A stretch of 60,893 nucleotides of DNA, the filler included, from Rhizaria sp. SCN 62-66 (taxonomy: Eukaryota), in NCBI GenBank assembly GCA_001724265.1. It is 2 parts of 2 records of this genome, joined end to end, with 100 filler letters (N's around TTAATTAATTAA, not from the genome) between each part and the next. Parts side by side here need not be neighbours in the genome. Positions count along the whole stretch, not along the records: positions 1 to 30,224 come from MEDY01000368.1; 1 more part is not named here. One strand, written 5' to 3'. Made by a program: the position numbers and the translations under genes. Positions 2 to 30,224 of this stretch are shown one piece after another (the stretch's first letter is position 1; each line of letters starts with the position of its first letter). The notes under the pieces are model-generated. The model was not told the DNA's origin, searched no databases, and saw only the letters and a list, made by a program, of their open reading frames with translations.

Positions 2-1422
2 CGCGCGTCGCGTCTGCTGTCGGGCCTGGTCAGTCTGCTCGACAAGGGGCTCGGCACGGCCGTCGGCGTAGCGCCCGACCCCAGCGCAGACGCCGCCGCG
101 GCCGCCGACGCTGCAGCCGCAGCCGCAGCGGCCGTGGCTTTGGCGACGGGAGCCGGCCCCGCGGGCGCGCCCGGCGCCGGCGACGGCGCCGGCAGGGGCG
201 GCCGGGGCGGCCTGGACGCGCCCGCGCGCATCGTCAGCGTCGGCACGGCCGCGCTGGCGCTCGAGAGGGCCCGCGCCGCCGCCAACGAGGCCGCGGTCGG
301 CGCGGCGGCGCGCTCACTCTCGGCGCTGCCCCGCGCTGGCAGCGTCGCCGTTAGCAGCAACCCGTTCGCGCCCCCCGCCGCGTCGCCGGCCTCCATGTCC
401 CGCTCTGGCACCGGCGCCGGCGTCGGCCCGGGCTCCGCGATGGGCTCGACCGCCGCACCCGTGACTGTCTCTGCGACTGTATCCGCGACTGTGTCGGCCG
501 CCGCGACGCCCGCGCTGGTGCCTCTGCCGGTGCACGTGCCGGCCCGCGGGCTTGGCTCGCCCGCCAGCAGCTTCCACGGGCTCGGCGATCCCAACGCCAA
601 CGCCAATGCGTATAGCACCAACGTTGCGACCAACGGGCAGTATGGCGGCCTAACTTTGGCGACGAGCCCGCACGGCCAACAGCAGCCGCAGCAGCACATG
701 CCTTTGGCTCACGGCCAGCTGACGCCTGCGCAAAGCTACGACACCCTGCAGGCTCAGTCGCAGAGTAGCTTCAACGCCTTCGCCCCTGCCCCTGCTCACG
801 CGCCGACGCCGACGCTGATGATGCCACCCCAGTATCCCCAGCAGCAGCACCAGCAGCTGCACCAACAGCAGCACGGCGCAATGCCGCCGGTGGCTTACGG
901 CGCCTCTGCGCCGCAGTCCCCGCTGGGACACACCCACACGCACGCGCTCGCACTCAGCAGCAGCAGCACCAGCAGCGGCGGCGGCGGCGGTGGCGGCGGC
1001 GGCAGCGGGCCGGGCGGGCTCGGACTTGGACTGGCGCTCGCTCCCGCAGCCCTGAGTCCCCACAGCTCGAACCCGGGCTCGCCGGGCTTCGCCCACGGCC
1101 ACTTGCCCGCTGCCCACGGTCACCTGCCCGCTGCCCACGGTCACTTGCCCGCCGCCCACGGTCACCTGGGCCCCAGCCCGGTGATCCCGACTCTTTACAC
1201 CGCCAGCAGCAACGTGACCGTGAGCAACAGCAGCAGCAGTAGCGGCGGCGGCGGCGTCAACGGCGGGCTCAGCGGCCACGGCAGCTCCCCCGTCAGCCCG
1301 TACGGTGCGGCCGCGCTGGCCCCGCACTCGGCCCCCGTGTCGGCCGCGGTGCCGCACTACGGACACCCGCACGCCGGCCTCGCCGCGCAGGGCTACGACC
1401 ATAGCAGCATGCACTACGCAGC

Positions 1423-1460
<38 letters not shown>

Positions 1461-1888
1461 TGTTGGCGCCAGGAGTGCCAGAGCAGCAGCTGTCGCTCTC
1501 CGCCCTGGGCCCCGAGCCTCAGCCCAGCAACAACAGCAACAATTACGCTGCAAACAACAACCATAACAACAACGCTAATGTTAGCAGCAGCAGCAGCAGC
1601 AGCAACGTGCCTGCGACGCCTGTGTCTTCGACCGCGGCCGCTGCCGCCGCGGCCGCCGCCTCTGCCGCGGCGACCGCGGCGGCAGCCGGTGGCGCGGCGC
1701 TCAAGTCGACGCTGACGGGCTTCATGTCGATGTTCGGTGGCGGCACACGCGCGCGCGAGGCCAACCTGACGCAGGGCTCAGACTTCTACTACGACGAGAC
1801 GCTGAAGCGGTACGTGGACCGCATGAACCCCGACGCGCCGCTCAACGAGGGGGACCACAGCAAGCAGAAGGCCAAGGACGCCGCGGGC

Positions 1889-1925
<37 letters not shown>

Positions 1926-2182
1926 TGCCCCCCATGATGATGCCCGGCGGCCCCGGCTCGCCCGTGGCTGGCATGGGCATGGGCGGCATGGGGTACGCGA
2001 TGGACGGCAGTATGCCGCTGGCGCCTCAGATGGGCGGCGAGTACCAGTTCAGTGCCCAGACTGGCGGCGGCGGCAGTGTGGCGTCTCGCTACGTCTCCGC
2101 GCTCGACTACGCGCCCCCGGCGGACCACTAGCACCAGAGCGGCGCGCAGTCGCCCCTCATGCCCCAGATGCCCGGCTTTTAA
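2..2182 (+). CDS. SEC16: SEC16-like COPII/ER-exit-site scaffold, 3' part (5' truncated by window edge); ends at TAG 2129-2131 in the standard code or at TAA 2180-2182 if TAG is read through
   Basis: Frame is open from nt 2. Low-complexity P/Q/A/S/N-rich region, then 'REANLTQGSDFYYDETLKRYVD..PPPP..SRYVSAL', which resembles the Sec16 C-terminal motifs (FYYDEKLKRWV; SRYVD). The 16 codons after the TAG keep coding-like GC3 (15/16). Confidence 0.7.
1092..1168 (+). repeat. 21-nt coding tandem repeat, about 3.6 copies, encoding (HGHLPAA)n
   Basis: cccacggYcacYtgcccgcYg repeated directly. Confidence 0.9.
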
Positions 2183-2566: not shown

Positions 2567-3808
2567 ATGTCAGCCTCTCAACAGAATGATTCCAGCGCGC
2601 TGTCTATCGCCCCTGTCGGCCAGCGCAACCCTAACCAAAGTACAGGTACGTTCACACTCAACTTGTGGGCTAGCCCCAGAATGCATATTCCCTCTTCTTG
2701 CCCGCCCGCCCCCCCTGTTAACGCGCAATGCATCGATAATCCAGCACATCTTGCCTGTTTTCATGGTATATTATGGGGAAATTCCCTGGCGTATCGATAT
2801 TGGCGGTCTATGGTCGTGCATAGTGGGCGCGCGAGTGACGTCGTTTATGGCTGGTCTGCCCTACCGGGGAATTGCCCTACACGCGCCCCGTATCCCTTCC
2901 ACCCACTCAATAACTCATTACGCTTATAGAACTCGACCCACAGCATCTTTAATTTAACCTCCGACGTCATCCGTGCTTCTTTTTCCCGCCCTTTGAATCC
3001 CCCGTTAGTGATTCTCTTTGACTGGGACGACACTCTGTGCCCCACGACCCACCTCTTCCAGTCGGGCTTCCGCCTCGAGACTGAGCTCACTGAGGAGATC
3101 CGCCTCGAGCTTGACCAGATTGAGGCCTCCGTGTGCCGTCTGCTTGAGCACGCCTGCCAGTTCGGCGACGTCCACATCGTCACTAACGGCCAGACTGGCT
3201 GGGTCGAGCTCTCTGCCAAGAAGTTCCTCCCCAAGGTCGTCCCCATCCTCGCCAAGATCAACGTCGTGTCCGCTCGCTCCACTTTCGAGGGCATGTTCCC
3301 CGGCTGCCCGCTCAAGTGGAAGTTCTATGCCTTCCGCGAGAACCTCTCGTCCTCGTTCGCCTACTCGAAGCTCCACCGCAACGTCATGTCATTCGGCGAC
3401 TCGCACTACGAGCGCGAGGCGATCCAGACCGTCACCCAGGGCCTGCCCAACACCTACACCAAGTCGGTCAAGTTCACCGAGCGGCCTTCGCTCGACCAGC
3501 TGCGCCGCCAGGTTGACCTTATCGCCTCGTGCTTCGACGCCATTGAGTCCCACGACGGCAACCTCGACCTCCAGCTCACCGTCTCCTTCCCCGAGGACGG
3601 CGCCGCCAACCCCGACGAGGTTGACGCCGCGTCCGCCGCCGCGCCCGCCACCGACGCCTCCCCCAACTCGGCCACGGGCGCCGCCGCCGACGCGATGCTC
3701 GCCTCCTCTGCCGCCGCCGCCTCTCACGCTGCCCCCGTCTCTGCGGCGTCCAAGATCGCCCAGCAGCAGCAGCAGGCGGCGGCCCACCGCGCCGCGCTCG
3801 CGCTCTAA
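2567..3808 (+). CDS. HAD-superfamily protein (FDWDDTL type), 2 exons: 2567-2645, 3009-3808; 292 aa
   Basis: ATG at 2567; GTACGT..TAG intron 2646-3008 in consistent phase 1; HAD motif I 'ILFDWDDTLCPT', 'IVTN' motif II and 'SFGDSHYE' motif IV; stop TAA. Confidence 0.85.
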
Positions 3809-8026: not shown

Positions 8027-8975
8027 TCACGGCTTCGGCCCCGCAGAAGCAGCAGCAGCCGCAGCAGCGGCGGCGGCAGCAGCCTTAGCAGCAGCAGCCT
8101 CAGCAGCAGCCGCAGCGGCGGCCTCAGCCGCTGCGGCGGCGGCGGCGGCGTCCGCGGCCTCGGCGGCGGCCTGCGCGGCGGTGGGGTAGGAAGGGGGCAC
8201 GACGCGGCTGAAACCGGGCATGGTGTTGACGTTCATGCTCTTCATGCTGCGCACGTGCATGTGGTTCGCCATCAGCTCCAGCGAGTCGAAGTCCTGGGAA
8301 TTGCGCATATGCGTGTCGAACAAAGGCGAGGACAATCGTGCGTAGACGTACAACAAAGGGGTATTAGAGAGATTAAAAAATAGAGTGAGTTGGGAGTCCG
8401 TCTGTGTGAGCATCAAACAAGAAGCAAATTGAGTGATAGATAAAGTTTCTTGGAGATATAAAACCCCGGGCGGTAAGATAGCGGTGGTTGTGTCGGCGTA
8501 CGTTGGGCTTAAGATGCTTTGAGCGGCGAAAGAGGTCCTGCTCGTCGAAGCTGGGCAACGGGTAGTCGGCGTCCTCCGACATCACGCCCTCGGGGTCGAA
8601 CGCCAGATTCAGCGCCTTGGCGTAGCACGCGCGCGCAAGGCTAATCTTACCCTCGTACAACAGCCGGTTCGCGTATTGGCTGTGAGGGTGCGGAGAAGAC
8701 AAGATGGTGTGAGACACGAAGGGTGGTAAGCTTTGCAGGGCTAGAACGAGGTCAAAGGCGGTGCTAAGAGGACAATAACGGGTTTGACCGATAGAACAAT
8801 AAAATGAGACGTACCGAATCTTCTTCAAATTGCCAGCAAAAGGGCAAAAGTCCTCGATGCCCGAAGTGTCGGAGTGGGCTGTGAGACTGGTCAGTGGTCC
8901 AGCCTGGCACAGCGCCAACACCGCCAGCAGCACCAGGGCAGCCAGCAGACGCGGAATCGTTGCACACTGTAACAT
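8027..8975 (-). CDS. Hypothetical secreted protein with one TPR-like helix pair and an Ala-rich tail; exons 8975-8815, 8679-8502, 8293-8027 (about 201 aa; start uncertain)
   Basis: Signal-peptide-like 'RLLAALVLLAVLALCQA'; two GTACG..CAG introns join in frame; 'YANRLLYEGKISLARACYAKAL' is TPR-like; stop TGA. Confidence 0.65.
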
Positions 8976-9577
8976 ATGCAAACACCAACTCACAAGCAAT
9001 TTGCGTGAGAGCACTCTTAACGGTCGCCCGAATGCGATATCACCCTTCCAAATTGGGCTCGCCTCCTTCCGCCCAGCACCCGGGTTCCTAAAAAATCGCC
9101 CAAGAAGCTGATCTGACTGACTGCACTGCGAGAGGCTCGATCATGTCGGGTGCGCTTCGTGAGGGTTTTGCAGCAGTTTCTTGCGTGAATAACTATAATT
9201 TTCCGGCACAGCATAGCCCAGTCTGTGTTTTATACAATATCCAATTTATTGATCTCTCAGATGCCGTCTTGGCCTCGCCTGTGTACCGCTGCGACAACGG
9301 CTGCGTTGCGGTTGAAACGTAACGCCCCGACTCACGCTTCTTCTCTCCCACGCCTGCAACCCTCTCCTGTGCTTCACTATTTTACTTCTGCAGGCTTGCC
9401 GAATCGTTTTTCTTTTCGGTTTCGCCTCTTAACTCTTTTTTCCACTTTTCCCGCCGTCCCCCCGCTGGCTCCCGTGCCCGCCGGACCGGACCTCCCCCAC
9501 CGACTTAACCAACACACTCTCGGCCTAGGCCTGCCCTCGCGGCCCCCGCGTTCCACCGCAGCCCCCCACCCCGTGCG

Positions 9578-12500
9578 ATGAGCCTCTCCGCCCCGCACAA
9601 GTCCGTTGGGCTGAGCGGCATGACCAAGCTCGCGAGCGCGGACGCGCGCGTCAACCGCCGCGTGCGCCACAAAGGTCTCAAAGAGCGCCGCACCGACGTC
9701 AACGTCGACGTGCACCACAAGGTTGCCGCCGTTGCGCTTGCGCCCAAGGTCGACCTGGCGGGCAAGCGCCTCGACAAGCAGCGCGAACTTGAGCTGTCGG
9801 CCTCGTTCTTTGCCGACGCACTCCGCAAGACGGCCAACCAGGAGGCGACGTTCGCGTATGCCGCCTTCGACCGCCAGATGCGCCCCTTTGCGGTGAGCCT
9901 GCCGATGCTGTTGCACAACGCGCGCCGCGTCATGCGTGTGTTCCTGCGCCACCTGCAGATTCCCGACTCGGACGCCTTCCTGCCGATCATCCGCCTGCTG
10001 CCCGTGCTGGCGCGCGACCTGCGGTCCGAGATCTTCCCCTTCTTCTTCGAGGTCGTGTCTGCGCTCGTCGACTGCGTTCACCCCGACAAGCCCGAGGAGC
10101 TGGAAGCCATCTTCGGCACCATCGCGTACCTCTTCAAGTTCCACGCGCGCGACGTCGTGCACCGCATCCCTGACCTCTTCTGGACCGCCTTCGTCGGGTT
10201 GCTCTCGCACCGCGCGCAGGTCATCCGCACCAAGGCCGCGCAGACGCTCGCCTACGTCTTCCAGATCGTCCAGAACCCGGCGCGGTTGTACCGCGCGCTC
10301 GACGCCGTGCTCTCGGTGCCCGCACTGCAGGTCACCGAGGCGCAGGCCGCGCGCGCCGCCGCCGAGGTCGCCGCGCGCGCGGTCAAAACGGCCGCGCGCG
10401 CCGCCAGGCACGCCGCCGCCAAGCAGGCCGCCGAGGGCGCCGCCTCCACCGCTGCCGCCGCCTCCGACGCCGCCGCCGCTGAGGCCGCCGATGACGATAG
10501 CGATCTCACTGACGACGACGACGACGATTATGAAGACGCCGAGGAGGCTGCCGCCGCGCGTGAGGCCGCGGCCGCTGAGCGCGGGTCTTCCAAGTCTGCC
10601 GCGATGCGCTTGGGCTCCGCCCGCGCCACCGCGGCCGCGGCGCGTCGACCCCCGCGCACGTGCGCGCACTCGCTGCACGCGGTGCCGTGGGCCGCCGAGC
10701 CGCGCCGCGCCGCGCAGCTGCAGGAGGGCCTCGGTGACCTCCTCTTCTTCATCCTCAAGAACGTCCAGGGCCAGATGCACTCGACGGCGCCCCGTGTGCT
10801 GGGCTACCTCGTCGCGTCGCTTGCCAAGGGCGCGCGCGTCACGCGCATCGCCGCCGCCCTCGCCACCACAGACGCCAACTCCGGCGCTGTGACGGCGGTG
10901 GCGCCCGCCGCGGTGCGCGCTGCCCTCAAGCGCATCGCCCGCGGCAAGCCCTGCGCCGACTCGGCGGCCGCCCGCGCCGCCGACTGCGCTGCGCAGGCCG
11001 CGCTAGCGGCGGCGCGCGCGGACGCGGCCCGCCAGGTGCACTTTCGCACCCGTGTGCTGGCCCACGCGCTGCAGCAGCTGGCCGCGTGGGTCAAGCCGAG
11101 CGAGAGCGACGCCCTCTGGGGCGCCGTCGCCGCGCGCGCAGAGCTCGTCGTGCGCCGCTGGCGCAAGGTCACCGGCATCAAGCCCGCAGCGACCGGTAGC
11201 GCCTCGAACAATCGCAACAACGAAAGTGACGATGACAGCGAGAGCGACGAGAGCGGAGCCAGCAGCAGCGGCGCCGAAGACAGCGACAGCGACGGCGAAA
11301 TGGGCACCACGGACGAGGAGGAGGCTGCCAAGCTTTCGGACCAAGACATCACCGACAGCGACGACGACAACGACGACGAGGGTGTGCCCGCCAAGGACGT
11401 CCCCGGCTCCGCCGCCTCGCGCGCCGCCGAGGCCGCAGCCGCCGACGAGGCGCGCCGCCGCGTGTCTGCCACGGCCCGCGAGCTCTCGTGGGAGCTCACC
11501 CACGTCACGGGGATGCTCCAGGTGCTCGTCGGCAGCGCGAATGCGCGGCTTAACTTCGACATGCCCTACATCGCGTCCATCGCGCTCGGGCTCACCGAGG
11601 CCTCGCTGCTCTCTGACGCGCACAACACCAACGGCAGTAACGCGAACGCGGGCACCTGCGCTAGCAGCGACACTGTCGTTGATGCGCAGCTTCGCGCGCC
11701 GACGTACGCGGTGCACGCGGTGTCGCTGCTGACGCAGGTCTGGGGCGTGACCCTGAAGCGGACGCGTGACCCCGTGTACCAGGCTGAGGCGCCGCAGCTG
11801 CTCGAAATCTCGCGCCAGTTCACCGCGAAGCTGCCCGCACTCTTCGCCGCGCTGGCGCCGCACCCGCTCGCCGTGCTTCGCTTCGTCACTGGTCTGCGTG
11901 TGTTCCTGCAGCCCAGCGAGTTCGAGCTGCGGGTGCTGCCGCGCCTCGTCGCGTACGCGCTTACGCTCTCTCAGTCCACCGCCAGCTCCAACAGCTCTAG
12001 CGTTAGCGTGAGTGCGAGTACGAGCTCGAGTGCGACGACGCTGTGGGGCCACGAGTCGCCCTCGTCGGCAGCGCTGCTGCTGCTGCTGGCTGTCATGGCG
12101 CCTCTGCCGCAGCCCAAGGCGCGGTGGGACCCGACCGAGTTCACGCACCGGCTGTGGCTGGCCGCGCTGCCCTCGACGGCGACCTACGACGCCATCGCCG
12201 CGGCCTCAGTGTGGTGCACCGACAAGTTCGCCCCGCAGCACTACGTGCACCAGGGCGCGCAGCCCGCCTTCACGGCGGCGTATGCGGAGCACCGCCTCGC
12301 CATGGCGCTGCTGCGCGGCCGCGGCCGCGTCGCGGCGCTGGTTCCGCCCGTGCTGCCCACGGTCGACGCCGCCGTCTACGGCGACGACGCCGCCGCCGCC
12401 GACGCAGGTAACGGCGACGACGATGACGACGGCGAGGAATACGACAGCGCGGACGAGGACGCCGCGGTGCGCGCCCGGCTGGCCGCGCGCCGCCGCGCCG

Positions 12501-13026
12501 CCCGCGCGGCCCGCGTGAGCTCGGCCGTGACGGCCGCCTCGCTGGCCACGGTCGCCAGCGCCGCCCGCAAGGACTTCAGCTACACGCCGCTGACGGCGCT
12601 CTCCGCGGAGACGCAGGCGCGGCTGTTCACGCTCACGGCGCGCGCGCTGCTGGGCGCGGCGCAGGAACTGCTGGCGCTGCCCACGGAGACGGCCGCGCTC
12701 GCCGCTACCGTCGCGGGGTCCCCGGCGCACGCGCTGCTGTCAGACGTGTGGGCCGCGCTCACGGTCATGCTGGGCATGTTCATCCCTCTCTACACGCCCG
12801 TCACGGTCACCATCGCGAGCGCGAGCTACACGGCCAACGCGAGCAGCGACGCGAAGAAGAGCAGCAAGAAGAATGCGAATAATGCAAGTAGTTCTGCTAC
12901 GCCTGCGAGCGAGACGATTGCGACTACGACAGTGGGCTCGGTGATCTTCACGGCCCAGCGCGCTCTGGCGCATGTCGTCACGCTCGCGCTCGCCGCGCTG
13001 CCCCCGGCCGCGGCCCTCACCACCAC

Positions 13027-13062
<36 letters not shown>

Positions 13063-13468
13063 GAGCGCTGGTGGCGCGGCGTGCTCCGCGCTGGGCCCGG
13101 ACCCGCACGCGCTGGCGCTCGCCACGCAGGTGCGCGCGCACGCCGACGCCGTGTTCTTCGCCCTGGCGCGCGCGCCCGTGGCCACCGCGGTGCCTGACGC
13201 CATGCGCGCGCTCGACTACCTGCAGCTGCTGCTGCCGCTGCCGGTACCCGCCGTGCTGTCGCTGTCGCTCACCGACATCGTCCCCAGCTCTTCGGCTAAC
13301 AGCAGCAACGGCGGAGACTGTGCGAGTTCGCTTGCGTTGGCGACTGCCTTCATGCCCACGTCCACCGCGCCCCTCGTCGCCGCCGCGCTCGCCGCCGTTT
13401 CCAGCGCCAGCGCCGGCGCGAACTCGAGCGACGAGAGCAAGGACGGCGCCATCTCGGTCGTGACCCCC

Positions 13469-13503
<35 letters not shown>

Positions 13504-16500
13504 GCTGGCCACCTCCGGCCCCGCGGCCGCGACGGCGTCCGCGCCGGCGCTGTCGCGCGCTGTCCGCGCGCTGGCGGCGCAGTGGCCCCGCGCCGCGGGC
13601 TCAGTGTTGACGCTGCGCGCGTGGGCGGCGCTGACTGCGCTCGAGGCCGTGCACGACGTCGCCGTGGCTTCGCGCGTGACGGCCCCGCCCGCGCTAGCCG
13701 GCACCGTGTGGCCGCTGGGCGTCGACGCCGCGGGGGCCTGGGCGCCCGCCGCGTCGCCGCTCTCGGCGCTGCCCGGAGCCGCATTCCTGACGCTGCAGAC
13801 GGCGGCGCTGAAGCGGCTGACGACGCTGTGCCGCTACCTCGCGGTGATCCTGCCCCACGCCGCCGCTGCCATGGGGTCGGCCACCACGGCGCTCACTGTT
13901 GCCAACGCGCAGCGCAAGAAGGGCGACAAGAGCGGTGCCGCGGCCGCAGCTGCTGCCGCGATTGCGGCGGTGCAGTACGAGGTGAGCCCGATGCACCGCA
14001 CGACGGCGTGGTGGAGCCACAACGCGGCCCAGGACATGGACGTGCTAGACGGTAGCGCCAGCAACAGCAGTCTGGTCACCACCACGACGCACATCAGCGC
14101 CAACTACAGCGCCGATCGCGGCGACTTGGCGCCCGTGTACTCCAGCGACGACGAGAACGACGACGGCGACGACGACGACGGCGACGGGCGCACGGTCGCC
14201 GCGCGGTCCGCGTCGCAGAACATCCACAGCATCAACCTCTACGGCAAGCTCAACGCGATCCAGCTGAACCGCATCAAGGCCTCGTCGAAGCTGTGGAAGC
14301 AGTACCGCCGCATCCAGAAGGCGCGCGCGGCGGGCGAGCTGCTTGAAGAAGAGTACGCGCCGCGCATCGACAAAGACACGTTCCTGAGCGACGTCGACAA
14401 GCTCCGCAAGCAGCAGCGCGCGCGCGCCCGCGAGGACACACGCCTCGAGGTCTCGATTCCGGCTGACTATACGCGCGCCGAGCGCCGCGCGGCCGAGAAG
14501 GGCGCCGTGGTGCACGCGCGCGAGCTGCAGCAGCGCCAGCGCGCGGCCCGCGAGCGCGCCGCTGACGCCACGCAGCTGCTGCGCGCGGATGACGACGACG
14601 GCGATGGCAACGGCTACGAGGCCGGTGCGGGCACCGACTTCCTCTCGGTCCTCGCCGCCTCCGCTTTCTCCGACAACGGCAAGGCCGGCGCCCGCGGCGG
14701 CAGCAACGCCGCGCTGGAGGCCGCCGCCGCCGCGGCCGCGGAGACTATCTTCGCTGGCGCCGCCCTGGGCGGGCCGGCCGCGGACGCGCTAGCCGCCGCC
14801 TTCGCGCCGGTGGCCGCCGCGCTGCTCTCGGCCAACGCGGCGGACCGCGCGCGCGCGACGGCGGCGCACGAGGCGCTGACGGCGCTTGTGGTCCCGTCTC
14901 TGCGCGCGCCGGCGCATGCGATTCGCGCGCTCGCCGTCGACGCGCTGGCCGCGATGCCCACCCTGCACCACCTCGCCGCGCCCGTGCCCGCCACCAACAC
15001 GAGTAACCACAACAACAGCAGTGGCAATGGCAGCGGCAGTGGAGCGAAGTCAGTCAAGTCTGTTTTGACCGGCGCGCAGACGCAGCACCGGGCCGCGGGC
15101 CAGCCTTGCGGCGTGCTGGCCTCGCTGCACTTCCTGCTAACGCACGCCGTGGGCATGGAGCTGGACCGCCGGTCCGCGCCCCGGCTCGAGACCCTGCTGG
15201 CCTCAGTCAACCTGCGCCTGCTGCCGCCGCTGTACGCGTCGCTGCTACCGCCCTTTGCGCTGGGGCTGCTCTCAGTCAAGCTCTCGCTGCTGTGGCCGCG
15301 CGCGCTGGCGCTGCTGGGCGGGCTTGCGCAGCAGTACCCCGCGCTCACCTGGCCCTGGCTGCGACTCGCGCTTTCGGACGCGATGCTGCACTCGCACGCC
15401 GTGCTCGCCGTCCGCGAGCAGGCCATGACGCTCGGCGCCTCGGCCCCGGCCCCCAGCCGCGGGTCGCTCGAAGCCGCGCGCGAGGCCGCCGCGGGCGCCG
15501 TCAGCCGCATGCAGGACCTGGCGGCCGCCGCGGTCAACGCGCGCGCCATGGCGGACGGCGACTGCTTCGGCGTCGTCGCCAAGGCCGACACGGACATTGG
15601 CGCCCCCGTGGGCACCGGCGATGGCGACAACGGTGACTCTGCCGCTGACAGCGACGCCGTGTACGTCGCGATGGTCACGGGCAAGTCCGCCTCGGCCTCC
15701 GCATCGGCGTCCGCCGCCGCGACCGTCAGCAGCAACGGCTCCAACGGCGTGGTCACCCGCGGCCAGATCGCGGCACTGACGGCGATGCTGCGGCGCGAGG
15801 CCACTCTGTCACAGCACGCGACCGCCGCCGCGGTCGACGGCCCGACTCTGATCAAGTCCCTGCTCTCGGCAGTGGGCAACGAGGCGCTGGCCTCGCTGGT
15901 CAACTCGGCCGCGCACAAGGAGGGCCTCGTCGCGCTCTTCGCCGCCTTCGTGCACACCGAGTGGGCGCTGCTGCACCCGCACAGCGCCTTCGGCACGGCC
16001 ACGCAGGCGCGCGGCCGCGAGACGGGCGACGGCACGCCGCGCAAGATCACAGTGGTCACCGCGCGCCAGGGCTTCACGCACGACGTCTACATCGCAAACG
16101 TGCTCTCGCAGGCGCTCGGCATCGCGAACCCGTCGCCGCTCGTCCCCGCCGCGGGCGCCGCGGTGGGCTTCGTGCTCGCCGACGGCGCGCGCACGGTCGC
16201 GGCGGCCAAGATGAACCAGTTCTTGCGCGCCTTCGCGGCCAACTACAAGACGCTGAGCACGCTGCCATACGCCGACGCGCTGCTGAAGCCGCTCGCCGTG
16301 CGCCTGCTGAGCATGCCCAACCCGGACCTGCAGGAGAGCGCGCTGGCGCTGCTGGACAAGGCCAAGCTCGACTGGCTGAGCCCGTACTCGGACCGCCTGC
16401 GCCGGTTGATGAACGACAAGACGTACCGCGACGAACTCACGGCGATCTCGGTCGCTGTCCAGCGCAGCATCGACCGCTCGCGCCGCGCCGCCGCGCCCGC

Positions 16501-19500
16501 GCTGCGCCGCCGGCTGCGGCGCATGGGGCTGCTCGACGCGACGGGCAGCGCCAAGCTGCGCGTCGTACGCTCCGAGGCCGGCGCCGCGGGCCAGGACGAC
16601 AGCGACGCCGACGAGGACGACGACGAGGACGACGACAACCTCGACGACGACGGTGAGCTCGACGGCGACCGCGCCCACCTCAACCGCTACAAGTCCCACA
16701 CCCACGGCGACAACGCCGGCGCCGTGACGATGAAGGGCGTGGACGAGGACGACTACGGCGACGCCAATGACAGCGCGGGCGTGATCCACCCGCGCCACCG
16801 CGCGCACCTGCTGCCGCTGCTGTCGGCCGTGCTGACGACGCGCATGGCGACCTCGACGCACGCTAAGAGCGGCCGCTCCGCCGCGGCCAGCCGCCGCAAC
16901 GCTGTCATGGCCGTGCTCGCGCAGTTCCCGCCGCAGGAGCTGTCGTCCTACTTTGCCAGCATCCTGCGGCCCTTCGTGGCCGCGCTGCTGCTGACGACGG
17001 GCAACGGCGCGCTGCTGGCCGCTGCGCTCGACGCCGACGACGCGCGCAACGCCGCCGTCACGGCCCCCTTTGGCGCCGCCGTAGCGCTCGCAGGCGACGC
17101 CACGCACCACACGCCCGCCGCGTCGCCCGCCGTCGAGGCCGCCGGCGCCGCTGCAGCGGCGGCGCTGGCGGCGCCCGAGCTCGTGGTAACCACGACGAGC
17201 GAGACGGCGGCCCGCACGCGCGCCGTGATGGCGTCGCTGCGCGCGCAGGAGCTCGTGCCCGCGCCCGTCCGCGCCGCCGCCGCGTCGGGCGCGCTGGCCA
17301 CGGCCGCAGAGGACTACGTCGCCGTGCTGCAGCGCGGCGAGATGCTCACGGCGCTCACAGCGCGGCTCATCCGCGAGGGCGGCGGAGCGCTTTTCGCCGC
17401 CGCGGCCGCGATGGTGGCTTCGACCGTGCCGCCCGCGCTCGCCAACGCCGACAGCGTCGACCCCGAGTCAGCCGAGGCCGCCGCGGACAGCGACGCTCTG
17501 GCGCTGGTCGAGGCCGCCGTGCCTCCGCAGACGCTTGCCTCACGCGCCGCGGTCAAGCGCGTTATGGGCGCGGCCTACGTGGCGCTTGCCGCGGACGCCG
17601 GCGCCGACCCAGACACGCTCGACGCGTCCTCGCTGGGCGCGCGATCCTGGGACGCCGTGGCGATGAGCGCCATCAACGCGCCCCCCGCCGCCTTACTATC
17701 GGTGCCCGTCAACTCCCCGCGGCTGTCTGCGCCGCACGTGGTCGCTGCGATCGCTGGTTCGACGCTCGCGGCCTCGGCGGCGGCGGCGGTGCAGCGACAC
17801 GTGCTTGTCGGCTACGGCAGCCAACGTGGCAGCAGCAGCCGCGTAGCGCTGCCCGAGGTCGACACGCGCAAGCAGGTCGGCTTCCTCATCGGGTTGCAGG
17901 CGCTGTTGGGCCAGATGCGCACCGCAGTGACCCCGTTCCTGCCGACCCTGCTGCCCATCATCGTCTTCCTACACACGCGCGCGCACGCCCGTGCGACGCT
18001 CATCATGCAGTACCGCGCGGTGCGCCGCGCCGCGGTGCGCAAGACGGCCGAGGAGGAGGCCGCCGCCGCCGCCGCCGCGGAGAAGGAGGCCCGCGAGGTC
18101 CGCCGCGCCCGCCGCCGCGCCCGCGCAGGCCGCAAGCTGGGCTCCGCGCTCGACGACGCCACGCCGGCCCCCGAGGATGAGGACGCCAAGAACAGCGACG
18201 ACGATGACAACGAGGAGGAGGACCTCGCCGAGAGCTCCGGCACCGATTCGGACTCCGAGGACGCCGACGCGACCGTGGGCGTCGAGTCAGAGAAGGACAC
18301 GCAGCGGCGCGTGGCGGCGGACCTGGCCCGCGACGCGGACGCGCACGAGGCCGCCGTCTCTCGCATCCTTGCAGAGCCCGACGCCGAGGGCGCGCGCGCA
18401 CACGCCGGGAGCGCGAACCCCGAGGACGGTGTCGACGACGCCGGCGAGGCGGCCGCGCTTGAGGCGCTGCTGGGCGGGAAGCTGTTCGACCCCGAGGGCG
18501 AGGACAAGGCGCTGGCCTACACGGCCGAGTCGCTCCGCACCGTGCGCCTGCTCTGCAACAGCATCATGGCCACGGTCGTCGAGAGCCTGCACCCGCTCTT
18601 CGGCATCGACGCGGCGCCCGCCCAGTGCCCCGCGCTTGTCCACAGCGCGCCGAGTGGCAAGAGCAGCAAGAAGAAGTCCGCGATGAGCGACAGCGGCGAC
18701 ACCGAGGCCGAGTGGAGCAGTCTGGAGCGCGCGCTGACGGCCGCCGACGACTGGGCCAAGCGGCCCTCGCGCAGCCTCAGCGCCAGCGCGCGGCTGCTGC
18801 TCTCGGTGCAGCGCGGCGGCGACATCACCACGGCCCACGTCGCCGCCGCGACCACCGGCTCCGTCGCCGCTGACTCGGCGGCCGCGGCGTCGGACGACAC
18901 GCTGGTGCTGCCGCTGTGCGCGGCGTCGGTCGCCGACGCGCGCGCCGCCGCGGCGGCGGTGGCAGAGGCCGAGGCGCTGGAGCGCGCGGGCCGCGTCCCC
19001 GCGGGCGCCGAGGCCGCCGTGGCCGCCGCGCGCGCCTCGGCCGTCGTCTGCGCGCTCACGCCGCGCGCGCTTTTCGCCAACGTGTACCTCTTCGCGCAGT
19101 CGAGCCGCATGACGATCGAGCGCCTGGCGCTCGACGCCACGCAGTCGCGCGTCGGCTGCATGGAGTTCGTCGTGTCGCTCGCCAAGCACCGCGCCACACA
19201 GCCCTTTTTCGCGCTGCCGACGACGCAGTTTGTGCTGCCCTCGCTCTTCGCCGTGCTCTCCTCGGCGTCGGTCACGCCCGCGGTGGCTTCGGCGCCGCTC
19301 GAGGCCGTCGAGCACATGCTCAACACGATCGACCAGCTCGACCAGGAGCAGAAGCAGGCAGCCGTCGACGCCAAGACGGCCGCCGCGGACCGCGAGGCCC
19401 GCCAGGCGCGCCGCCAGGCCCGCATCCAGGTGCTGCAGCGCCGCGCCGCCGCGCTCGAGGCGCGCCGCGGCGATTCCTCGCTGCACAACGACGAGGAAGA

Positions 19501-22500
19501 GCTGGAGGCCGAGCTTGCGAGCGCGTACGCCGCCATCGAGGCTGTGCGCGCGCGCGCCGAGGCCGCAGCGACGGGCGCGCTCACGGCGGTGCAAGATGCC
19601 GAGGAGTCCGGCGATGACAGCGACGACTACGACCAGTCGACCGACGCGCGCCGCGCCAAGCTGCGCGCGTTCGACGCGCGCACGGCGGAGCGGCTGCGCG
19701 CGGACCGCAGCGACAAGGAGATGGCGCGGCGCGCGAACCCGCGCGCGACGCCGCTGGGCGAGGACTCGGCGCAGTCGCCGGCGCTGCGCGGCGTGCTGGC
19801 GCGCGTGCTCACCACGCATGCGCCAACGCTGCTGCGCAACCTCAACGTGTACCTGCAGAACGTCGCTGACGGGCTTACGGTCACGTACGACTCGCTGTCG
19901 AAGAAGAACCGCGGCAAGCGCGCGCGGCTGCCGCGGCGCGAGCTGACCCTCGCGGCGCGGCTGGCGCCTTACGCGCGCGACGCCGACACGGCGCGCACTC
20001 TGGCGTCGATCCTGATCGCGTACCTGCCGTTCGGGCAGCCGCAGCCGCTGCACTCGCTGGCGCCCTCGGCGTCGTACACGTCGCGCCGCGGCTCCGAGGA
20101 GGACGCCGAGGAGGCTGACAGGCTCTCGCGGCTGCGATACGGCGTCGAGCTGCACCAGACCACGGTGCTGGGGCTGCTGTGCGACCTGGTGCCGTGCGTT
20201 CGCGACGTCGAGTTCCTCGTCACGCTGCAGGACACGCTCGCGCACCAGCTGCTGCTCGTGTTTCCCGGCAAGTCGCGTGTCCGCGTCGCCTCGCTGCTGC
20301 GCTCCATCGCGCAGAGCGCGCGCGCCGCCGTCGCCGAGGCCAGCAGCGGCGCAGACAGCTCGGCCGCCGCCGCCGCCGCTGCCACTGCCGTGCTGCCCGA
20401 GGCGCTGTCGGCGCCCGGCGCGCTCGAGGCCCGCCTGCTGTCGGACGACGTGCTGCTGGTCATCGACGGGCTCACCTCGCTGGAGCCCACGCGCGCAGAC
20501 CCGTCGCCGGACTACGCGCGCCACCTGCGCACCTACCGCGCGCTCACGCTGCCGAACCGGCAGATGCTGACGGCCGTGCTGTCGGCCGACGCGGCCGCTG
20601 TGGCCGCCGAGTCGGCCGCCGCGCTGGCCAACAGCGAGGTGATCGGCGCCAACATCGCCGAGGACGCCGTGCTGCCGGGCCCCACTGCGCACACCTTCGG
20701 CGCCAACAAGCTTGCCGCGCTCGTCACCACATCCGCCGACGTGCTCGACGCCGACAACGACGCTGCTGACGGCGCGGGCGCGGGCGGCGTGTGGGTGCAG
20801 TGGTCGTCGCACCAGGCGCTGCCCGTGGCCTACGCGCTGCTGCACGACATGTACGCGGCCGAGAGCTCCGCGCGCGAATCCGCCCTGACGGGGCTGCAGC
20901 GCCTCATCGCCGCCAACGCGGGCGCGACCGCCGAGGAGCGCGCCGCGGGGCTGCCCTCGGCGCTCGTCACGCGCGTCGTGTTTAAGGCCGTCACGGACGG
21001 CTTCGCGTCGAAGCACTACCTCCCGCGCCGCGCGTTCCTGCAGCTGTTCGGCGTGTTTGCGCGCTGCTTCCCCGCGCAGTACCCCGCGCTCGCGCTGCTC
21101 GCCGCGCTCACCAGCAGCGGCAACAACAACGCGCAGCTCTTGCAGCAGTCCCAGTCACAGTCTCAGGACAAGGCCCAGGACAAGGCTCAGAAGGAGAGCG
21201 CTGCTAAGGCCAAGGCCAAGGCAAGCGCCGCGGCAAGTGCGGTCGGCAGCCTGAGCAGCGGCAGCGGCAGCGACGAGGAGATCGACTTCTTCACGGCCGT
21301 GATGCACTCGCAGGTGGCGCACCGGCGTCGCGCGCTGGGCCAGCTGCAATCGCTGCTCACGCTGGAACGGCAAGCGCAGGCGCCGCGGGTCCAGGCAATG
21401 GGTGTGGCCGCTATCGAGTCGTCGTCCAAGCCGGTGTACGAGACCAAGCTGGCTGAGCTCATGTCGTCGCTGCTGCTGCCCATGGTGGGCCACGTCATCA
21501 CCGAGGCGGGCGGGCCCATCGCGCAGGGCCAGTTCAACAAGGGCCGCCGCATCAAGAAGGGCCCGCTGACCAACGTCTTTGGCGTCGACGCCGACACGCT
21601 CAGCCTGGCCGTGCAGGTCTACGGGCTGCTGGGCTCGTTCCTGCCGTGGAACCGCTACCGCGCGGAGCTCACGGCGTCGCTGAACCGCGTCATGAAGGAG
21701 CCCACGCAAGAGCGCGTGCTGCTGCGCGCGACCGTGGCGCTCATCGACGGCTTCCCCTTCCCCATCGGGCTCGACGCCGCGCAGCTCGCGCTCACCGCGC
21801 TGCCCGCCATGCGCCGCAGCCGCGGCGAGCCCGACCCCGACGACGACAAGAAGGGCGGGGATGCGAAGAAGAAGTTCAACCGCTGGCGCCCGCCGCCGCG
21901 CGCGCCGCGGCCCGTGTCGGCGCACGCGCTGTTGGGCATTGAGCCCGGAGGCGCGGTGCAGTCGTCGCTCTTCACCAGCGACATTACCGACATCGACCTC
22001 GCGGCCGCGGCGAGCGGCAAGGCGCCCGTGGCCGACATGATCCGGTTCACGCTGGCGAGCAAGATCCTGCCGCGCATGTTCTCCTTCTGCACGTCAACCA
22101 AGGACATGGGCGGCGATGCGCGCTTCGAGGCGATCCAGCAGCTGCGCATGAAGAACGGCGACGTCGACACCAACAACCCGCTGTTGCAGGGCAAGCAGCT
22201 GGGCGAAGTGCGCGTGTCGGTCGTCATGGCGCTCGTCAAGCTGCTGCAGAAGCTGCCCGCGTCCGACTTCCACAGCCAGTTCCCGCGTCTGGTGCGCGTC
22301 GTCGTCGTGCATCTGGCGCGCAAGGAGCAGGAGCACCGCGACGTGGCGCGCAAAACGCTCAACTCGGTGCTCGACTCGGTCGGCCCGGCGTTCCTGTTCT
22401 ACGTCATCTCGGAGCTGGAGACGTCGCTGGTGCGCGGCAACCAGCTCCACGTGCTGGGCTTCGTGCTGCACGACATCCTGCACCACATGGCTGAGGTCCG

Positions 22501-25500: not shown

Positions 25501-26288
25501 AGAGGAGAAGGAGAACAAGAGCAACGGCGACGAGAACGAGGACGACGAAGACGAAGACGATGATGAGGACGACGACGAGGACGCGCGCGCCGCCAAGCGC
25601 TCCGCCGCGGCCCGCGCCAAGGCCTTTATCACGGCCTCCTTCTCCTCCGTCCTCTCCTCCGCCAGCGCCAACAGCGCGGCCGCTGCGATCAGCGCGACGG
25701 GCAGCGACGCGCCGGCGCCCGTGATGGACGCGCACGTGCACACGCCGTGGCAGATGGGCTACGCGGCACTTAACTGCCTGGAGCGCGTGTTCAAGTTGTC
25801 GCCGCCGGCGGCGCTGGCGGCCGTGCAGGGCAGCGAGGGCCTGTGGGCCGACGTCGTGCAGCTGGGGCTGCACCCGCACAACTGGGTGCGCAACGCTGTG
25901 GCGCGCGTCGTGTCAGCGCACCTGCAGACTCTGCAGCTCGAGGCGCTGGCCGATGAGCACGGCTACCTGGCGCAGGCCACGACGTTCCGCACCAGCGCGG
26001 GGCTCTACGAGGTTGCCAAGATGACCGCACTGCAGTTTAACTCGGTGTACCTCACGGCTGCGATGGCCGAGAGCATCATCAAGAACCTGACGTTCTTGAT
26101 GCTCGCGCTCTACGTCGCGCGCGAGCAGCCCTTCTTCGTCGAGATGACGCGCGAGAAGACGGAGCGAGTGCGCGAGGGCATCGCGCGTGAGCTCGCCGAG
26201 GACGCCGCCGTGCGCAAGCAGGCTGAGAAGCACCGCAAGCGCCTCGCCTCCGTTGCCAAGGGCACGGGCAAGGCCGGCGATGAAGACA

Positions 26289-26332
<44 letters not shown>

Positions 26333-26938
26333 GAGGCCGAGGTCCAGCTGCCGCGTCTGAGCAACAAAAAGATGCTCTCGTCGTCCAAGCGCCTGGCCTC
26401 AGTCGGCGCCGTCAACGACGGCCGCGGCGGCTTTGCGCACGCCGCGATGGCGTGGGTGCTCACCACGCTGTCCTTCACCGCGCGCCGCACCGAGAGCATC
26501 ATCGTGCGCGACTCGGTGCTGCGCTTCTTCGGGCACCTCGGCACGCACCTGCCGCCCGAGCACCTGCTCGTGTTCCTGCCGCACATGATCAACCCGCTGT
26601 ACCGCGTGGCCGAGTCGGCCGTCACGGTCTCGCGCCACACGCGGCTGCTGCTGCGCCTCGCGGGCGGCGGGCTGTCGGAGCGCGAGAAGAGCCAGTTGCT
26701 GGCCTCCGAGGTCATCGACGTGCTCAAGAAGCGCGTCGGGCTTGAGGTCTTCATGGGCGCCTACAACCGCGTGGCGAGCCGCGTGAGCCACATCCGCAAC
26801 GAGCGCAAGCGCAAGATCAAGGAGTTGGCGCTCGTCGACCCCAAGGCGCACTTCGAGCAGCGGCACAAAAAGTCGCTCAAGGACCGTGAGCGGCAGAAGA
26901 AGGCCAAGAACCGCATGCTCGACATCGTCAAGCGGTAA
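9578..26938 (+). CDS. UTP20: U3 snoRNP/SSU processome component UTP20 (HEAT-repeat), 5786 aa, apparently intronless
   Basis: N-terminal 'SLPMLLHN..LLPVLARDL..IAYLFK', DRIM-type block 'NPDLQESALALL..LSPYSDRLRRLMNDKTYRDEL', C-terminal 'HPHNWVR' and 'EVIDVLKKRVG..AYNRV..RKRK..LVDP'; stop TAA. Confidence 0.92.
26291..26329 (+). repeat. (GAC)13 coding microsatellite (poly-Asp) in UTP20
   Basis: Perfect GAC run. Confidence 0.9.
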
Positions 26939-27369: not shown

Positions 27370-30224
27370 TTATTTCTCCACCAGATCCCGCAACGCATCG
27401 ACCGTGATCAGCCACTTCTCCACGTTCTCCCGGTAGCGCTTGTTGCTGCACAGCGCCAGCACAGGCTCCACCACGCTCTCGCGCAGCCAGCGTCGCTGGA
27501 ACGCCGTCATTGTCCGCGGCCGGTTGCTCTTCTTGTCATTAGTGTCATCGCCACTCTCCGTCCCTTCGCCCTCCGTGTTGTCGGTCGCAGTGTAACGCGC
27601 AACCATGCCATGGATGCAGTGTTTCAGCGACGACAGCAGCGAATTGATATAATACATCGGGTCGTCGGCCAGGCCCTCGCGCAGCCCCACGGCGGCAACC
27701 AGGGGCAGCAGGCCGGCGCGCAGCAGCAGCGGCGCGACCTCCCAGCCGGGCACAACTTTGTCCTCTGTGTCCGCCAAGATGGTCCGCGTCAGGAGGTACG
27801 CAACCGACCGAACGGCGTCGTCGTCGCCGTACTGCAGCAGCGCCAGCACGGCACCCAGGTGCGACTGCGACAAGTCCACCGCGGCGGCGAGCTCGTCGCG
27901 CGGCACGGGCGGCTTGTTGTGCGCGCGTCGCGCAAAGCCGTCCTGCCAGCGCTCGCCCGTTGCGGTGTCGTTGGCCGTAAGCGGGCCGCGTGTAGCGGAC
28001 CGCAGCGACGGCGTGGCCGCCAGGCAACACAGGTTATGAAGCGTGCGCCAAGCGAAGCGGTGGCCCGCGGCCCACATAGCGGGCGTCAACAGACGGTGGA
28101 ACGCAAAGGCTGCGCCACAACGCATCAGTGCCAAGAGGTTATTGAAGTTTTGCTTGCGTGTAATCGAACTCAATGCAGTTAAGCAACTCAGGAGACACTA
28201 CCACTATGGATACACCTGGGTGCCAAAGTATTTGACTGGCACCACTGGCAGCAGCGGCAGGAGACTCATCACGCTCGCGGCCATCACGTCAGCCGAGAGA
28301 CTCGCCGCGAGGGCTTGGGCTAAGAGGTCGACCAGGAGCGGTGCATCCTCCACCGCAAGGGTATTGACGTACGCAGTAAAAGCTTTGTTTGATGTGCGCA
28401 AGTTAGCTTCTTCGCGCTTCCGCACCTCGGCAATCTGCGCCGCCACGCCCGGCGCCACCGAGGCTCGCACGGCGGCTGCGGCGGCGCTGCATGCTTCACG
28501 CCAGGCGTCCATCACGTGCTCCGTGTTCTCCCAGAGCGCACTATTGAAGTCCTCGAAAAGGAATGCGTAGTTCCATTCGGGCTTCTCGAACGGGAGCTTC
28601 AGCCCAGTGAATGTGTTTGAGATACCGAGCATGTTCATCAAGCTGTAAGAGATCTCGAGCACTTGCTGCAAGCGCCGCTTGTTGTCCGCCTTCGTGACGT
28701 ACGAGTCACGCTTCGCCCTCGCACTCGCATCGGCAGCAGCTGCTGCCTTTGCCATTGCCTTTGTTCCCGCGGCCTCAGCGTCATCCTCATGGACAATGCA
28801 CGCAGTCGTGTCGCCGAGCATTGCCGTGCAGACAAGTCCGGCCAGTGGCGCGATCACGAACGAGAGCGCAGTCAAGCGCGACACCGCGTAGTGGCGCGAG
28901 ATGCATTGATCCTGAACAAGGTCCATGATCACAAACGACTCGCCACGACGGTATTTCATCGCAACAGCACTAGTCCCAACAAGCGAGACAATCATATCGC
29001 GGTAGGCGCTCCCAGTGCATGGCAATGTGCGCAGCGCGCGCTCAGCCAGTCGCAGTAGTTTGATTTCGGCGCAGTCGTCAAAGGAATCCGGCAGCAAGTC
29101 CACGGCAAAATCGTCGAATGTGCACAACTTGCAGTTGCTGCGTTGTTTCTTGCCGTCGCAGACAGAAGAAGCATCGTCATTCGGGCTCGCGGCCGCGCAG
29201 TCGTCGTCATCATCGCTCGGACTGCGTCAGCACGGTAATTCTTGTCATTGTCCGTGGCCACGACCGCACCTGCGCTCGGAAGCGGCACGGCCACGGGACT
29301 GCCCACAGCGACCATCTCGTATACCGCGCGCTGGCTCACCGTGCAGCAGCGGTCCAGGCAGTCGGCCAGCGCGCCCACCAGCATCGGGCTCGTCAGCGGC
29401 GCCGCCAGCAGCGCCTTGTACACCGGCAATGCGAGTGCGCGCGCGAGCCGGGCGCGGTAGCGGCGCGGGGCGACGTTGGCCAGCCCCCGCAGCGCGACAG
29501 CGGCCAGCGTCGCCGTGGTCGGGTTGGGGGAGTAGAGCAACGGCACGAGCGTGTCGCGCGTGGCGGCGACCGCGGCGGGCGTGTCGTAGAAATGCTCGAA
29601 CCGGCGGCGGAGAAAGCGGAGCACGCGTTTGCAGAGGAAGGGGTATGATATCTCGCTCGCGCCCGCGCGGACCGCAGCCACGGTAGCACTGGTGAGCTCA
29701 TTGTCCTCGTTCTTGACGTTGACTGGGGGAGGCAGGTCCTCGACGTCGCCAAGCTGCTCAACGTCCTTCTCGGATTCGTCGTCCTCAGCCTCGGCGTCAA
29801 CCTCGTCTTCGTCCTCGGTCGCTTCGTTCTCACACACACCCTGGTCATCATCAGCAGCATCGTTGTCTGCCGCGTCCTCCTCCTCGAGCTATCGGGGGGC
29901 CACGGTATGTTTGACAAGTCGAAGATAGCGATAGAAGTGGTTGCCCACCACGTCCGCTGTCGCAGCGAGACGCGCGAGAGAGCTCAGCGCGTTGGGGTCG
30001 CTCGCTGCCGCAATCTCTTGTGTGCGGGGCACGTCGGGAATGTTAATGTCAACCATTTCGAGTAGATCGGTGGCAGAAATCGGGAACTCCGAGGGTTCTT
30101 TCCATTGATACGTTCGCAAGAGCTATGTACTTCGGGCAAGTTGCGTCACGACCGCGCGAACAGAGGGCGACAGCAAGCCACCGATCGCCTCACGTACTGC
30201 GAATGTATGCTCCATGTGAATGGG
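27370..30224 (-). CDS. Divergent ARM-repeat (importin-alpha-like) gene with 4 in-frame TAGs and one frameshift near 29225; 5' end may run into the gap; may be a pseudogene
   Basis: ARM-like segments 'LVPLLYSPNPTTATLAAVALRGLA', 'FAWRTLHNLCC' and 'LALLQYGDDDAVRSVAYLL'. ORFs 29889-30119 and 28992-29837 share a frame, as do 28204-29127 and 27370-28173, and each pair is separated only by TAG codons. Terminal stop TAA. Confidence 0.6.

Follow-up and report, generated by a model that had tools for sequence, protein, structure and literature searches.

A TAG inside a SEC16-like reading frame and the probable reading of UAG as glutamate in a GC-rich protist genome

Background

At the start of a contig of the protist Rhizaria sp. 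SCN 62-66 a long reading frame meets a TAG and continues to a TAA shortly afterwards. Does the gene end at the TAG, or is the TAG a codon, and if so, for which residue? The frame lies in a stretch of 60,893 nucleotides (the window). It is open from base 2, comprises 709 codons up to ...ADH, and is followed by the TAG (2129-2131), the tail HQSGAQSPLMPQMPGF and the TAA (2180-2182). The 5' part of the gene is missing because the stretch begins at the start of contig C368. The original prediction held that the TAG is decoded in this gene, which was named SEC16-like, and implied Gln as the residue. We have compared the site with stop-type triplets elsewhere in the 34.9 Mb eukaryotic assembly, of which 203 sequences were scanned (about 0.93 Mb distinct, or 2.7%, partly chosen for TAG hits), and with the genetic codes described in the literature.

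Results

The SEC16-like frame and its tail

Coding potential was scored with a three-periodic Markov model trained on the same genome. The 48 bases after the TAG score +17.6 bits, those upstream of the TAG +23.6 bits and those downstream of the TAA -3.5 bits. None of the 67 control positions that resemble gene ends in TAA or TGA reaches the value of the tail (median -17.7, maximum 8.8), and at only one of them do at least 15 triplets after the stop end in G or C, as a count confirmed for 15 of the 16 codons here. The claim that the frame runs past the TAG for 16 coding-like codons is thereby upheld. It had also been stated that the composition becomes UTR-like only after the TAA. As a qualification, the GC content after the TAA declines stepwise rather than at once, from 0.53-0.60 up to base 2280 to 0.33 and then 0.23.

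Table 1. Positions in the window of the SEC16-like frame, its parts and a possible second case
Feature	Position	Strand	Basis
Low-complexity, SEC16-like gene, 3' part (709 codons)	2..2128	+	open frame; GC3 0.87
FYYDETLKRYVD	1784..1819	+	sequence
SRYVSAL	2084..2104	+	sequence; TAG 8 codons further on
In-frame TAG, sense codon, most likely Glu	2129..2131	+	contigs of three studies and genome-wide evidence
Tail HQSGAQSPLMPQMPGF, 16 coding codons	2132..2179	+	GC3 15/16; +17.6 bits
TAA, likely true stop	2180..2182	+	next base G, as at most TAA/TGA ends of the genome
Two in-frame TAGs one codon apart	28198..28206	-	618-codon frame 27370-29226, ends TAA

The TAG is bridged with zero differences by contigs of the runs X3 (1932-2880), X4 (1932-2773) and X5 (2022-2259). 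Four runs were compared and three of them, from three studies, span the site. Since the contigs of three studies cross it unchanged, the TAG is not an assembly error. The same contigs represent near-identical strains and are therefore uninformative on its conservation. Among the contigs listed for the RNA run X10 none covers the site, and no ortholog of the tail was present among 80 metagenome loci fetched via the neighbouring gene, the closest of which (L166, 78%) begins after the tail. Further downstream in the window lie a HAD-like gene (2567-3808), with an intron at about 2646-3008, and a gene on the opposite strand (8373-9140). The two are adjacent also in the 78%-identical relative L166, where they end in TAA and TGA. 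Run X4 contains, at window positions 3007-3599, a second related organism that is about 87% identical over the HAD-like gene and should be useful for dating the code change.

The name SEC16-like rests on two motifs: FYYDETLKRYVD, which may resemble a motif of the SEC16 C-terminal region, and SRYVSAL, which may resemble the last conserved motif of SEC16 proteins. A hallmark of SEC16 is the central conserved domain PF12931/PF12932. The label was not substantiated: a Pfam search of the window frame, which lacks the 5' part of the gene, gave no match to the Sec16 family, a profile search with PF12931 gave none anywhere in the assembly, and no solved structure matched the frame. As a site the tail is moreover of the least telling sort, being of low complexity and without an alignable homologue, and having its TAG just 17 codons from the end. 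The proposal that the TAG is decoded here is supported, yet the support is genome-wide and comes from outside the window.

TAG within coding sequence elsewhere

In a symmetric scan of the 203 sequences, coding sequence was found on both sides of 29 TAGs, four TGAs and three TAAs. This excess was by itself rejected as proof, since random single-base nonsense changes under the codon usage of the genome were computed to yield 75-77% TAG. We noted one TAA in a Gln-rich frame (L090:3551, minus strand) and one TGA (L249:4331, plus strand) that are flanked on either side by coding-like sequence; these two may be nonsense changes, errors or cases of rare readthrough.

Matches to protein domains were searched for lone stop-type triplets. 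The 142 kinase matches included nine with a lone TAG, one with a lone TAA (an intron) and none with a lone TGA; five of the nine TAGs are located in exons, and the remaining four, all at match edges, are splice acceptors. Five family searches yielded 11 further TAG hits, four of them exonic (a kinase hinge, SUV3 and two USP enzymes) and seven acceptors or intronic. The family searches also gave five lone TAA or TGA hits inside domain matches. The TAG hits in kinesin (one in 54 matches), DEAD (one in 43), dynein AAA_6 (two in 18) and SNF2 domains (one lone TAG in 25) were discarded as sense codons, being splice acceptors, and the 20 ABC_tran matches contained no TAG. Because splice acceptors contribute TAGs, the signal of domain searches is diluted. 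In-exon TAGs were found in eRF1, six kinase domains, SUV3, two USP, UBE2J1, ABCA, Brr2/ASCC3-like and DEAD-box genes. Annotation with the standard code breaks such genes: in the public protein collection the ABCA gene is halved into two proteins (P0340 and P0334), split exactly at the TAG.

Within the window, the pair of TAGs on the minus strand (Table 1) constitutes only a possible second case, because their frame has no Pfam match and a weaker coding signal. This 618-codon frame overlaps a 298-codon frame (28992-29888, minus strand) in another phase, possibly owing to an intron, a frameshift or decay of the gene.

What ends genes, and how rare TAG is

For a census of gene ends we took as unit the first stop-type triplet after coding sequence, which gave 208 cases (93 TAA, 74 TGA and 41 TAG). 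Coding sequence continues after 31 of the 41 TAGs, as against two of the TAAs and four of the TGAs (Fisher p 1e-22), and noncoding DNA follows 85 TAAs, 65 TGAs and eight TAGs. None of these eight could be retained as a gene end: one is an intron donor, two belong to exons that continue to a donor, one sits in a poly-Gln tract with 812 more codons downstream, and the other four are in wrong frames or noncoding DNA; one of the eight was judged on the census output only. A raw total of 515 TAGs was set aside as a count, as it includes wrong frames. The 2.7% of the genome that was read thus holds no confirmed TAG end next to 32 TGA and 29 TAA clean ends. UAA and UGA are kept as stops, and the base after such ends is a purine in 39 of 44 cases. 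If 10% of genes ended in TAG, finding none beside the 61 clean ends would be improbable (p 0.002), and for 5% the exclusion is marginal (p 0.04). As the data cover 2.7% of the genome, they are compatible with a share of a few percent; a protist with the standard code is reported to have UAG at 4.12% of its gene ends (PMC9161772).

With an estimated usage of about 1-2 per 10,000 codons (five in the 142 kinase matches) TAG is the rarest codon, ranking below ATA, TTA and AGA, the rarest ordinary sense codons (3.5-5.5 per 10,000). Seven long window frames, picked as stop-free, contain no TAG in 11,601 codons. The argument for the standard code that might be drawn from them was dropped in view of this choice of frames and of the very low frequency of TAG. 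Indeed, UTP20 (9509-26938) is a single exon of 5,786 codons without TAG and so shows how rare the codon is. Such rarity would be expected where GC3 bias is strong and one tRNA gene serves the codon, or where the change is recent.

A tRNA with a CUA anticodon

One tRNA gene with the anticodon CUA, present in a single copy, was found in the assembly (G000:C84:76008-76080, minus strand). It has a full standard cloverleaf followed by a run of T, scores 58 bits with the Rfam tRNA model (cut-off 29), and its neighbours are GC-rich protein genes, which places it in the nuclear genome. It was located with a loose tRNA pattern that gave 45 hits and recovered, as a control, all five tRNA-Gln(CUG) genes; eight hits had a CTA anticodon, four of which were fetched (one being the tRNA) and four dismissed by eye. 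An Rfam search in which 63 of 506 candidates were scored, a search with a tRNA-Gln query and two tight patterns had all missed it, the single hit of the tight patterns being a gene end and not a tRNA. No tRNA with a UUA or UCA anticodon was found among 33 pattern hits, in which the anticodon stem was judged by eye and which come from an assembly that may be incomplete.

Pyrrolysine tRNAs have a non-canonical fold with a 6-bp anticodon stem and a 3-nt variable loop and are not known to carry the standard D and T loop motifs. The CUA tRNA has a 5-bp anticodon stem, GG in the D loop and a standard T loop, and was rejected as a tRNA-Pyl; the Pyl label assigned by ARAGORN follows the anticodon only. 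When compared with 24 other tRNA types (an incomplete set) it was most similar to tRNA-Glu(CUC), with 64.4% identity, followed by Thr (56.2%), His and Glu(UUC) (both 54.8%) and Lys, Ile and Asp (53.4%), whereas the two tRNA-Gln reached 49.3% and 39.7%. In a tree the CUA tRNA clusters with tRNA-Glu(CUC) (support 0.92), and its first five acceptor pairs are common to both tRNA-Glu. Leu and Ser bodies are excluded, because the variable loop counts four bases. In addition, the CUA tRNA has U11-A24, U13-G22 together with A46, and no residue 47, features that are described as body determinants of E. coli tRNA-Glu (PMC9976931). These are bacterial rules, partly common to other tRNAs, and the margin over unrelated tRNAs (Thr 56%, His 55%) is modest.

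The release factor eRF1

One eRF1 gene was found in the assembly (contig G000:C63); the other two PF03463 matches are in our reading exons of a pelota-like gene. The gene itself carries a TAG (L032:1603-1605, minus strand), mid-exon and within the N domain, at the position of human E107; the alignment is free of gaps before and after it. In a comparison with 117 homologues (120 were collected and three fused proteins left out) the protein stands out by T32S, G57S and L124M, at which positions all 117 carry T, G and L. A further change, T58K, is common to the closest relative (84% identical). As this relative retains T32 and G57, it could help to date the change within the lineage. Residue T32 makes contact with the G of UAG, and Iotanema has Gly in its place (T32G; PMC5304391). 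T32A is inviable in yeast, according to a report whose available part covers neither T32S nor G57 (PMC4381064). The eRF1 of the present organism is altered in two stop-recognition motifs, with a predicted effect on termination; T32S, which keeps the hydroxyl, would be a milder change than T32G.

Which residue UAG encodes

Six residues were tried at the 10 TAG sites covered by Pfam matches. The summed score was highest for Glu (736.6 bits), followed by Lys (732.9), Gln (731.5), Asp (730.3), Tyr (721.9) and Leu (719.3), which puts Glu 5.1 bits ahead of Gln and 3.7 ahead of Lys. Without the kinase hinge site this lead becomes 2.7 and 0.5 bits. By site, Glu scores above Gln at six, equal at two and below at two. 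The eRF1 column at the TAG contains Glu in 106 of the 117 homologues, Asp in 10, Val in one, which is the closest relative, and Gln in none. The hinge column of 41 kinases of the organism itself holds 27 Glu, six Asp, no Gln and five gaps. The ABCA column (154 rows, with Glu in the query) has Ala 56, Glu 27, Pro 17, Ser 15, Asp 10, Gly 10 and Gln 1, and that of UBE2J1 (86 rows) Asp 44, Thr 14, Ser 11, Glu 9 and Gln 1. Individual human proteins have Asp at the SUV3 site and Gln at the NEK1 site and at the hinge of CaMK1D. At the DEAD-box site DDX5 and DDX17 have Gln and DDX46 has His. The alignments with Brr2/ASCC3 (Lys or Cys), ABCA1/ABCA7 (Cys) and CaMK1D (Tyr) were set aside as uninformative on the residue.

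One ubiquitin copy has TAG where all five other copies of the organism have Gln. This copy (L305, G000:C681) lies in a virus-like stretch, where a lower-GC frame joins it to a Peptidase_S74 domain. The N-terminal part of that fusion frame resembles, by eye, a frame of the window (58265-59392).

The sequence around the TAGs has a Gln-like character. A neighbour-context test on 23 sites gave 15.8 bits for Gln, 3.9 for Lys and 2.2 for Glu, and the difference between Gln and Glu (13.6) is inside the range of true Gln codons and outside that of true Glu codons. The base after the TAG is C at 14 of 34 sites, where the fraction is 0.39 for Gln codons and 0.27 for Glu codons (p 0.055). We infer that this context could stem from CAG codons that underwent C-to-T changes where constraint is relaxed, which would amount to Gln-to-Glu substitutions, because non-synonymous neighbours of CAG are as common there as TAG: the one-step variants found in Gln-rich context were GAG 6, AAG 5, CGG 6, CCG 14, CTG 23 and TAG 2. 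Glu rather than Gln is likely, though not proven, and the originally implied Gln is probably wrong, because Glu is favoured by the body of the tRNA and by most of the conserved columns.

Affinities of the organism

Matches to dynein AAA_6 at 11 loci suggest that the organism is a flagellate, and the data sets in which it was matched are wastewater metagenomes wherever the habitat is given. Its closest HSP90 relative is 88% identical. An rDNA contig (L085, G000:C706) carries a very divergent SSU rRNA gene in which helix 17 is followed by an additional hairpin. The gene spans 4,445 bases and has several large insertions that resemble group I introns, one of which contains a His-Cys-box-like reading. 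The extra hairpin resembles helix 17_1 of Tetramitia as described in PMC12328842, and the contig possibly stems from another organism.

The ubiquitins (L306-L310) are unusually divergent and have an extra Ser at the start, which is reminiscent of the cercozoan polyubiquitin insertion. Three copies end in GG plus three residues, two are cut at contig ends, and a polyubiquitin junction is absent from the assembly. Contigs C1, C88, C172, C174, C247, C299, C375, C501, C522 and C650 share an identical element of some 60 bases, often at their ends, which probably represents one end of a repeat or a transposon.

Discussion

The combined evidence makes it almost certain that UAG is read as an amino acid throughout this genome. 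That it stands mainly for Glu, with little termination and with UAA and UGA as the stops, has in our estimate a probability of about 0.7; this estimate is derived from sequence comparisons. The best reading of the TAG in the SEC16-like gene is that of an ordinary codon and not of gene-specific readthrough. As in programmed readthrough, the TAG is followed by C, a short tail and a second stop. Unlike programmed readthrough, the signal is genome-wide and a cognate tRNA is present, and the tail ends in PGF, which is not a known targeting signal. If UAG is Glu, the protein would therefore end in ...ADH-E-HQSGAQSPLMPQMPGF.

The code could have arisen as follows. A copy of tRNA-Glu(CUC) would have been duplicated and its C36 changed to A, giving the anticodon CUA. 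The resulting tRNA would be charged by glutamyl-tRNA synthetase and would pair with UAG and not with UAA. On the side of termination, T32S and G57S may weaken the recognition by eRF1 of the third-position G in UAG, and the CUA tRNA would outcompete the weakened factor at this codon. In the SEC16-like gene a Glu (or former Gln) codon would then have become TAG, with the tail as ordinary coding sequence. An old TAG stop turned sense is not a plausible origin of the tail, because it would leave no coding-biased extension.

The TAG within eRF1 invites a more elaborate scenario, that of a young UAG = Glu code in a GC-rich non-ciliate in which one suppressor tRNA is set against a half-altered eRF1 and the eRF1 TAG serves as a feedback switch on termination, through which surplus eRF1 would cut short its own production. 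A parallel is found in the frameshift of bacterial RF2, by which an excess of the release factor curbs its own synthesis. We regard this full scenario as doubtful. The TAG may be there by chance, and the switch is speculation because, by our estimate, about 7% of genes of the length of eRF1 would carry a TAG by chance.

UAG might instead be in an ambiguous state, partly decoded (as Glu by the CUA tRNA, with some Gln) and partly terminating, so that long and short protein forms are produced. The rarity of TAG relative to the rarest sense codons, the single and divergent tRNA copy, the mild change of eRF1 and the mixture of Glu and Gln signals would all suit such a state, as would the base after sense TAGs, which is a pyrimidine at 19 of 34 sites where 0.37 is expected (p 0.02), while TAA and TGA ends are mostly followed by a purine. 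Even so we consider it unlikely, as no TAG end was confirmed beside the 61 clean ends, and as eRF1 and other essential single-copy genes have TAG at an early position, where much termination would be costly.

Rather unlikely, too, is a reading of UAG as Gln, either through charging of the CUA tRNA by glutaminyl-tRNA synthetase or through tRNA-Gln(CUG) reading UAG by first-position wobble. Gln is the commonest meaning published for codes in which UAG alone is reassigned (PMC11687900), and in E. coli amber tRNAs are able to become acceptors of Gln (PMC9976931). The NEK1, DDX5/DDX17 and ubiquitin sites, the neighbour-context and following-base tests and the occurrence of TAG in poly-Gln tracts point in the same direction. 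The body of the CUA tRNA is nevertheless Glu-like and unlike both tRNA-Gln, and Gln is absent or nearly absent from the four columns of eRF1, UBE2J1, the hinge and ABCA. Moreover, the Gln-like context can be ascribed to C-to-T changes in relaxed tracts, and the ubiquitin copy with the TAG sits in a virus-like fusion.

Under the standard code the TAG would be a nonsense change that became fixed and removes a dispensable tail of 17 residues, or a gene-specific leaky stop, and the other TAGs would be errors or lie in decaying genes. The preponderance of TAG among random nonsense changes, the low complexity of the tail, the TAG-free (and stop-free by choice) window frames and the precedent of a protist that seldom ends its genes with UAG (PMC9161772) would be in line with this. 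It is very improbable all the same, for it leaves the CUA tRNA, the changes in the eRF1 motifs and the TAG inside eRF1 unexplained. Nonsense changes would, furthermore, be expected to strike many codons for Lys, Ser, Tyr, Trp and Leu, yet most of the aligned sites are of Glu, Asp or Gln type, and the TAG site is identical in three studies. The idea that the TAG at 2129-2131 is a splice acceptor or intronic and is removed from the mRNA is extremely improbable: many TAGs at match edges did prove to be acceptors (four of nine kinase hits, seven of 11 later ones), but the DNA before 2131 is coding-like with 70-75% GC where introns of this genome are AT-rich, and the frame-keeping upstream GT sites (4 of 16) lack its GTA-type donor.

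Codes in which UAA and UAG differ in meaning are rare, and the tRNAs behind them have mostly remained unseen. Here a codon census, a cognate tRNA gene and changes in eRF1 come together in one genome, of a strain that several public wastewater data sets contain. If Glu is correct, the organism would add a further code table, intermediate between the standard code and the codes in which UAR is Glu or UAG is Glu and UAA is Lys. The very low usage of UAG in a GC-rich genome does not agree with the route through AT pressure that has been proposed for Blastocrithidia, and it makes it possible to test codon-capture versus ambiguous-intermediate models. The changes T32S and G57S, in turn, provide a ready hypothesis for the discrimination of UAG from UAA by eRF1.

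Among the published nuclear codes that reassign UAG alone are those of Iotanema spirale (Gln) and the rhizarian exLh (Leu) (PMC5304391), phyllopharyngean ciliates (Leu and Gln), Protocruzia tuzeti (Gln) and Scotinosphaera (Ser) (PMC11687900). The present genome resembles them in that UAG is sense, UAA and UGA are stops and a tRNA with a CUA anticodon is present. Like Iotanema it has a changed T32 in eRF1, although to Ser and not to Gly. It differs from the UAG-only codes in the available parts of these two papers by its most likely residue, Glu, and by its GC-rich genome. In the ciliates among them 78-91% of genes use UAG (PMC11687900), far from the one to two codons per 10,000 estimated here.

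In Heterolobosea, a 2025 study by Panek and co-workers reportedly finds that Dactylomonas venusta reads UAG as Gln in its nuclear genes. The most likely residue in our organism is different, and it need not be a heterolobosean.

As for Glu, we found no published listing of UAG = Glu with UAA and UGA as stops in a search that covered main texts and few subscription papers; in the literature found, and as far as its available parts go, UAG = Glu is known only where UAA is reassigned as well. In Oligohymenophorea sp. PL0344 UAG is Glu, UAA is Lys and only UGA stops (PMC10553269), whereas TAA is a main stop here. Its tRNA-Sup(CUA) is likewise closest to tRNA-Glu, with 69-93% identity there and 64% here, and it has ten CUA tRNA genes compared with the one found here (PMC10553269). 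Blastocrithidia reads UAR as Glu and UGA as Trp and uses UAA also as stop (PMC12153298), so that UAA and UAG are both reassigned there. Its UAG amounts to 1.4-1.7% of codons and the change has been linked to AT pressure, in contrast to the GC-rich genome studied here; a C36-to-A change in the anticodon of tRNA-Glu has been proposed for it (PMC12153298). In peritrich ciliates UAR is Glu (PMC11687900), so that UAA and UAG are both reassigned, as opposed to UAG alone in the present case. The likeness with Blastocrithidia and the peritrichs is that UAG would be read by a CUA tRNA derived from tRNA-Glu. Since UAA is not reassigned, the system probably works like the UAG = Glu codes at UAG, yet it is not the same code.
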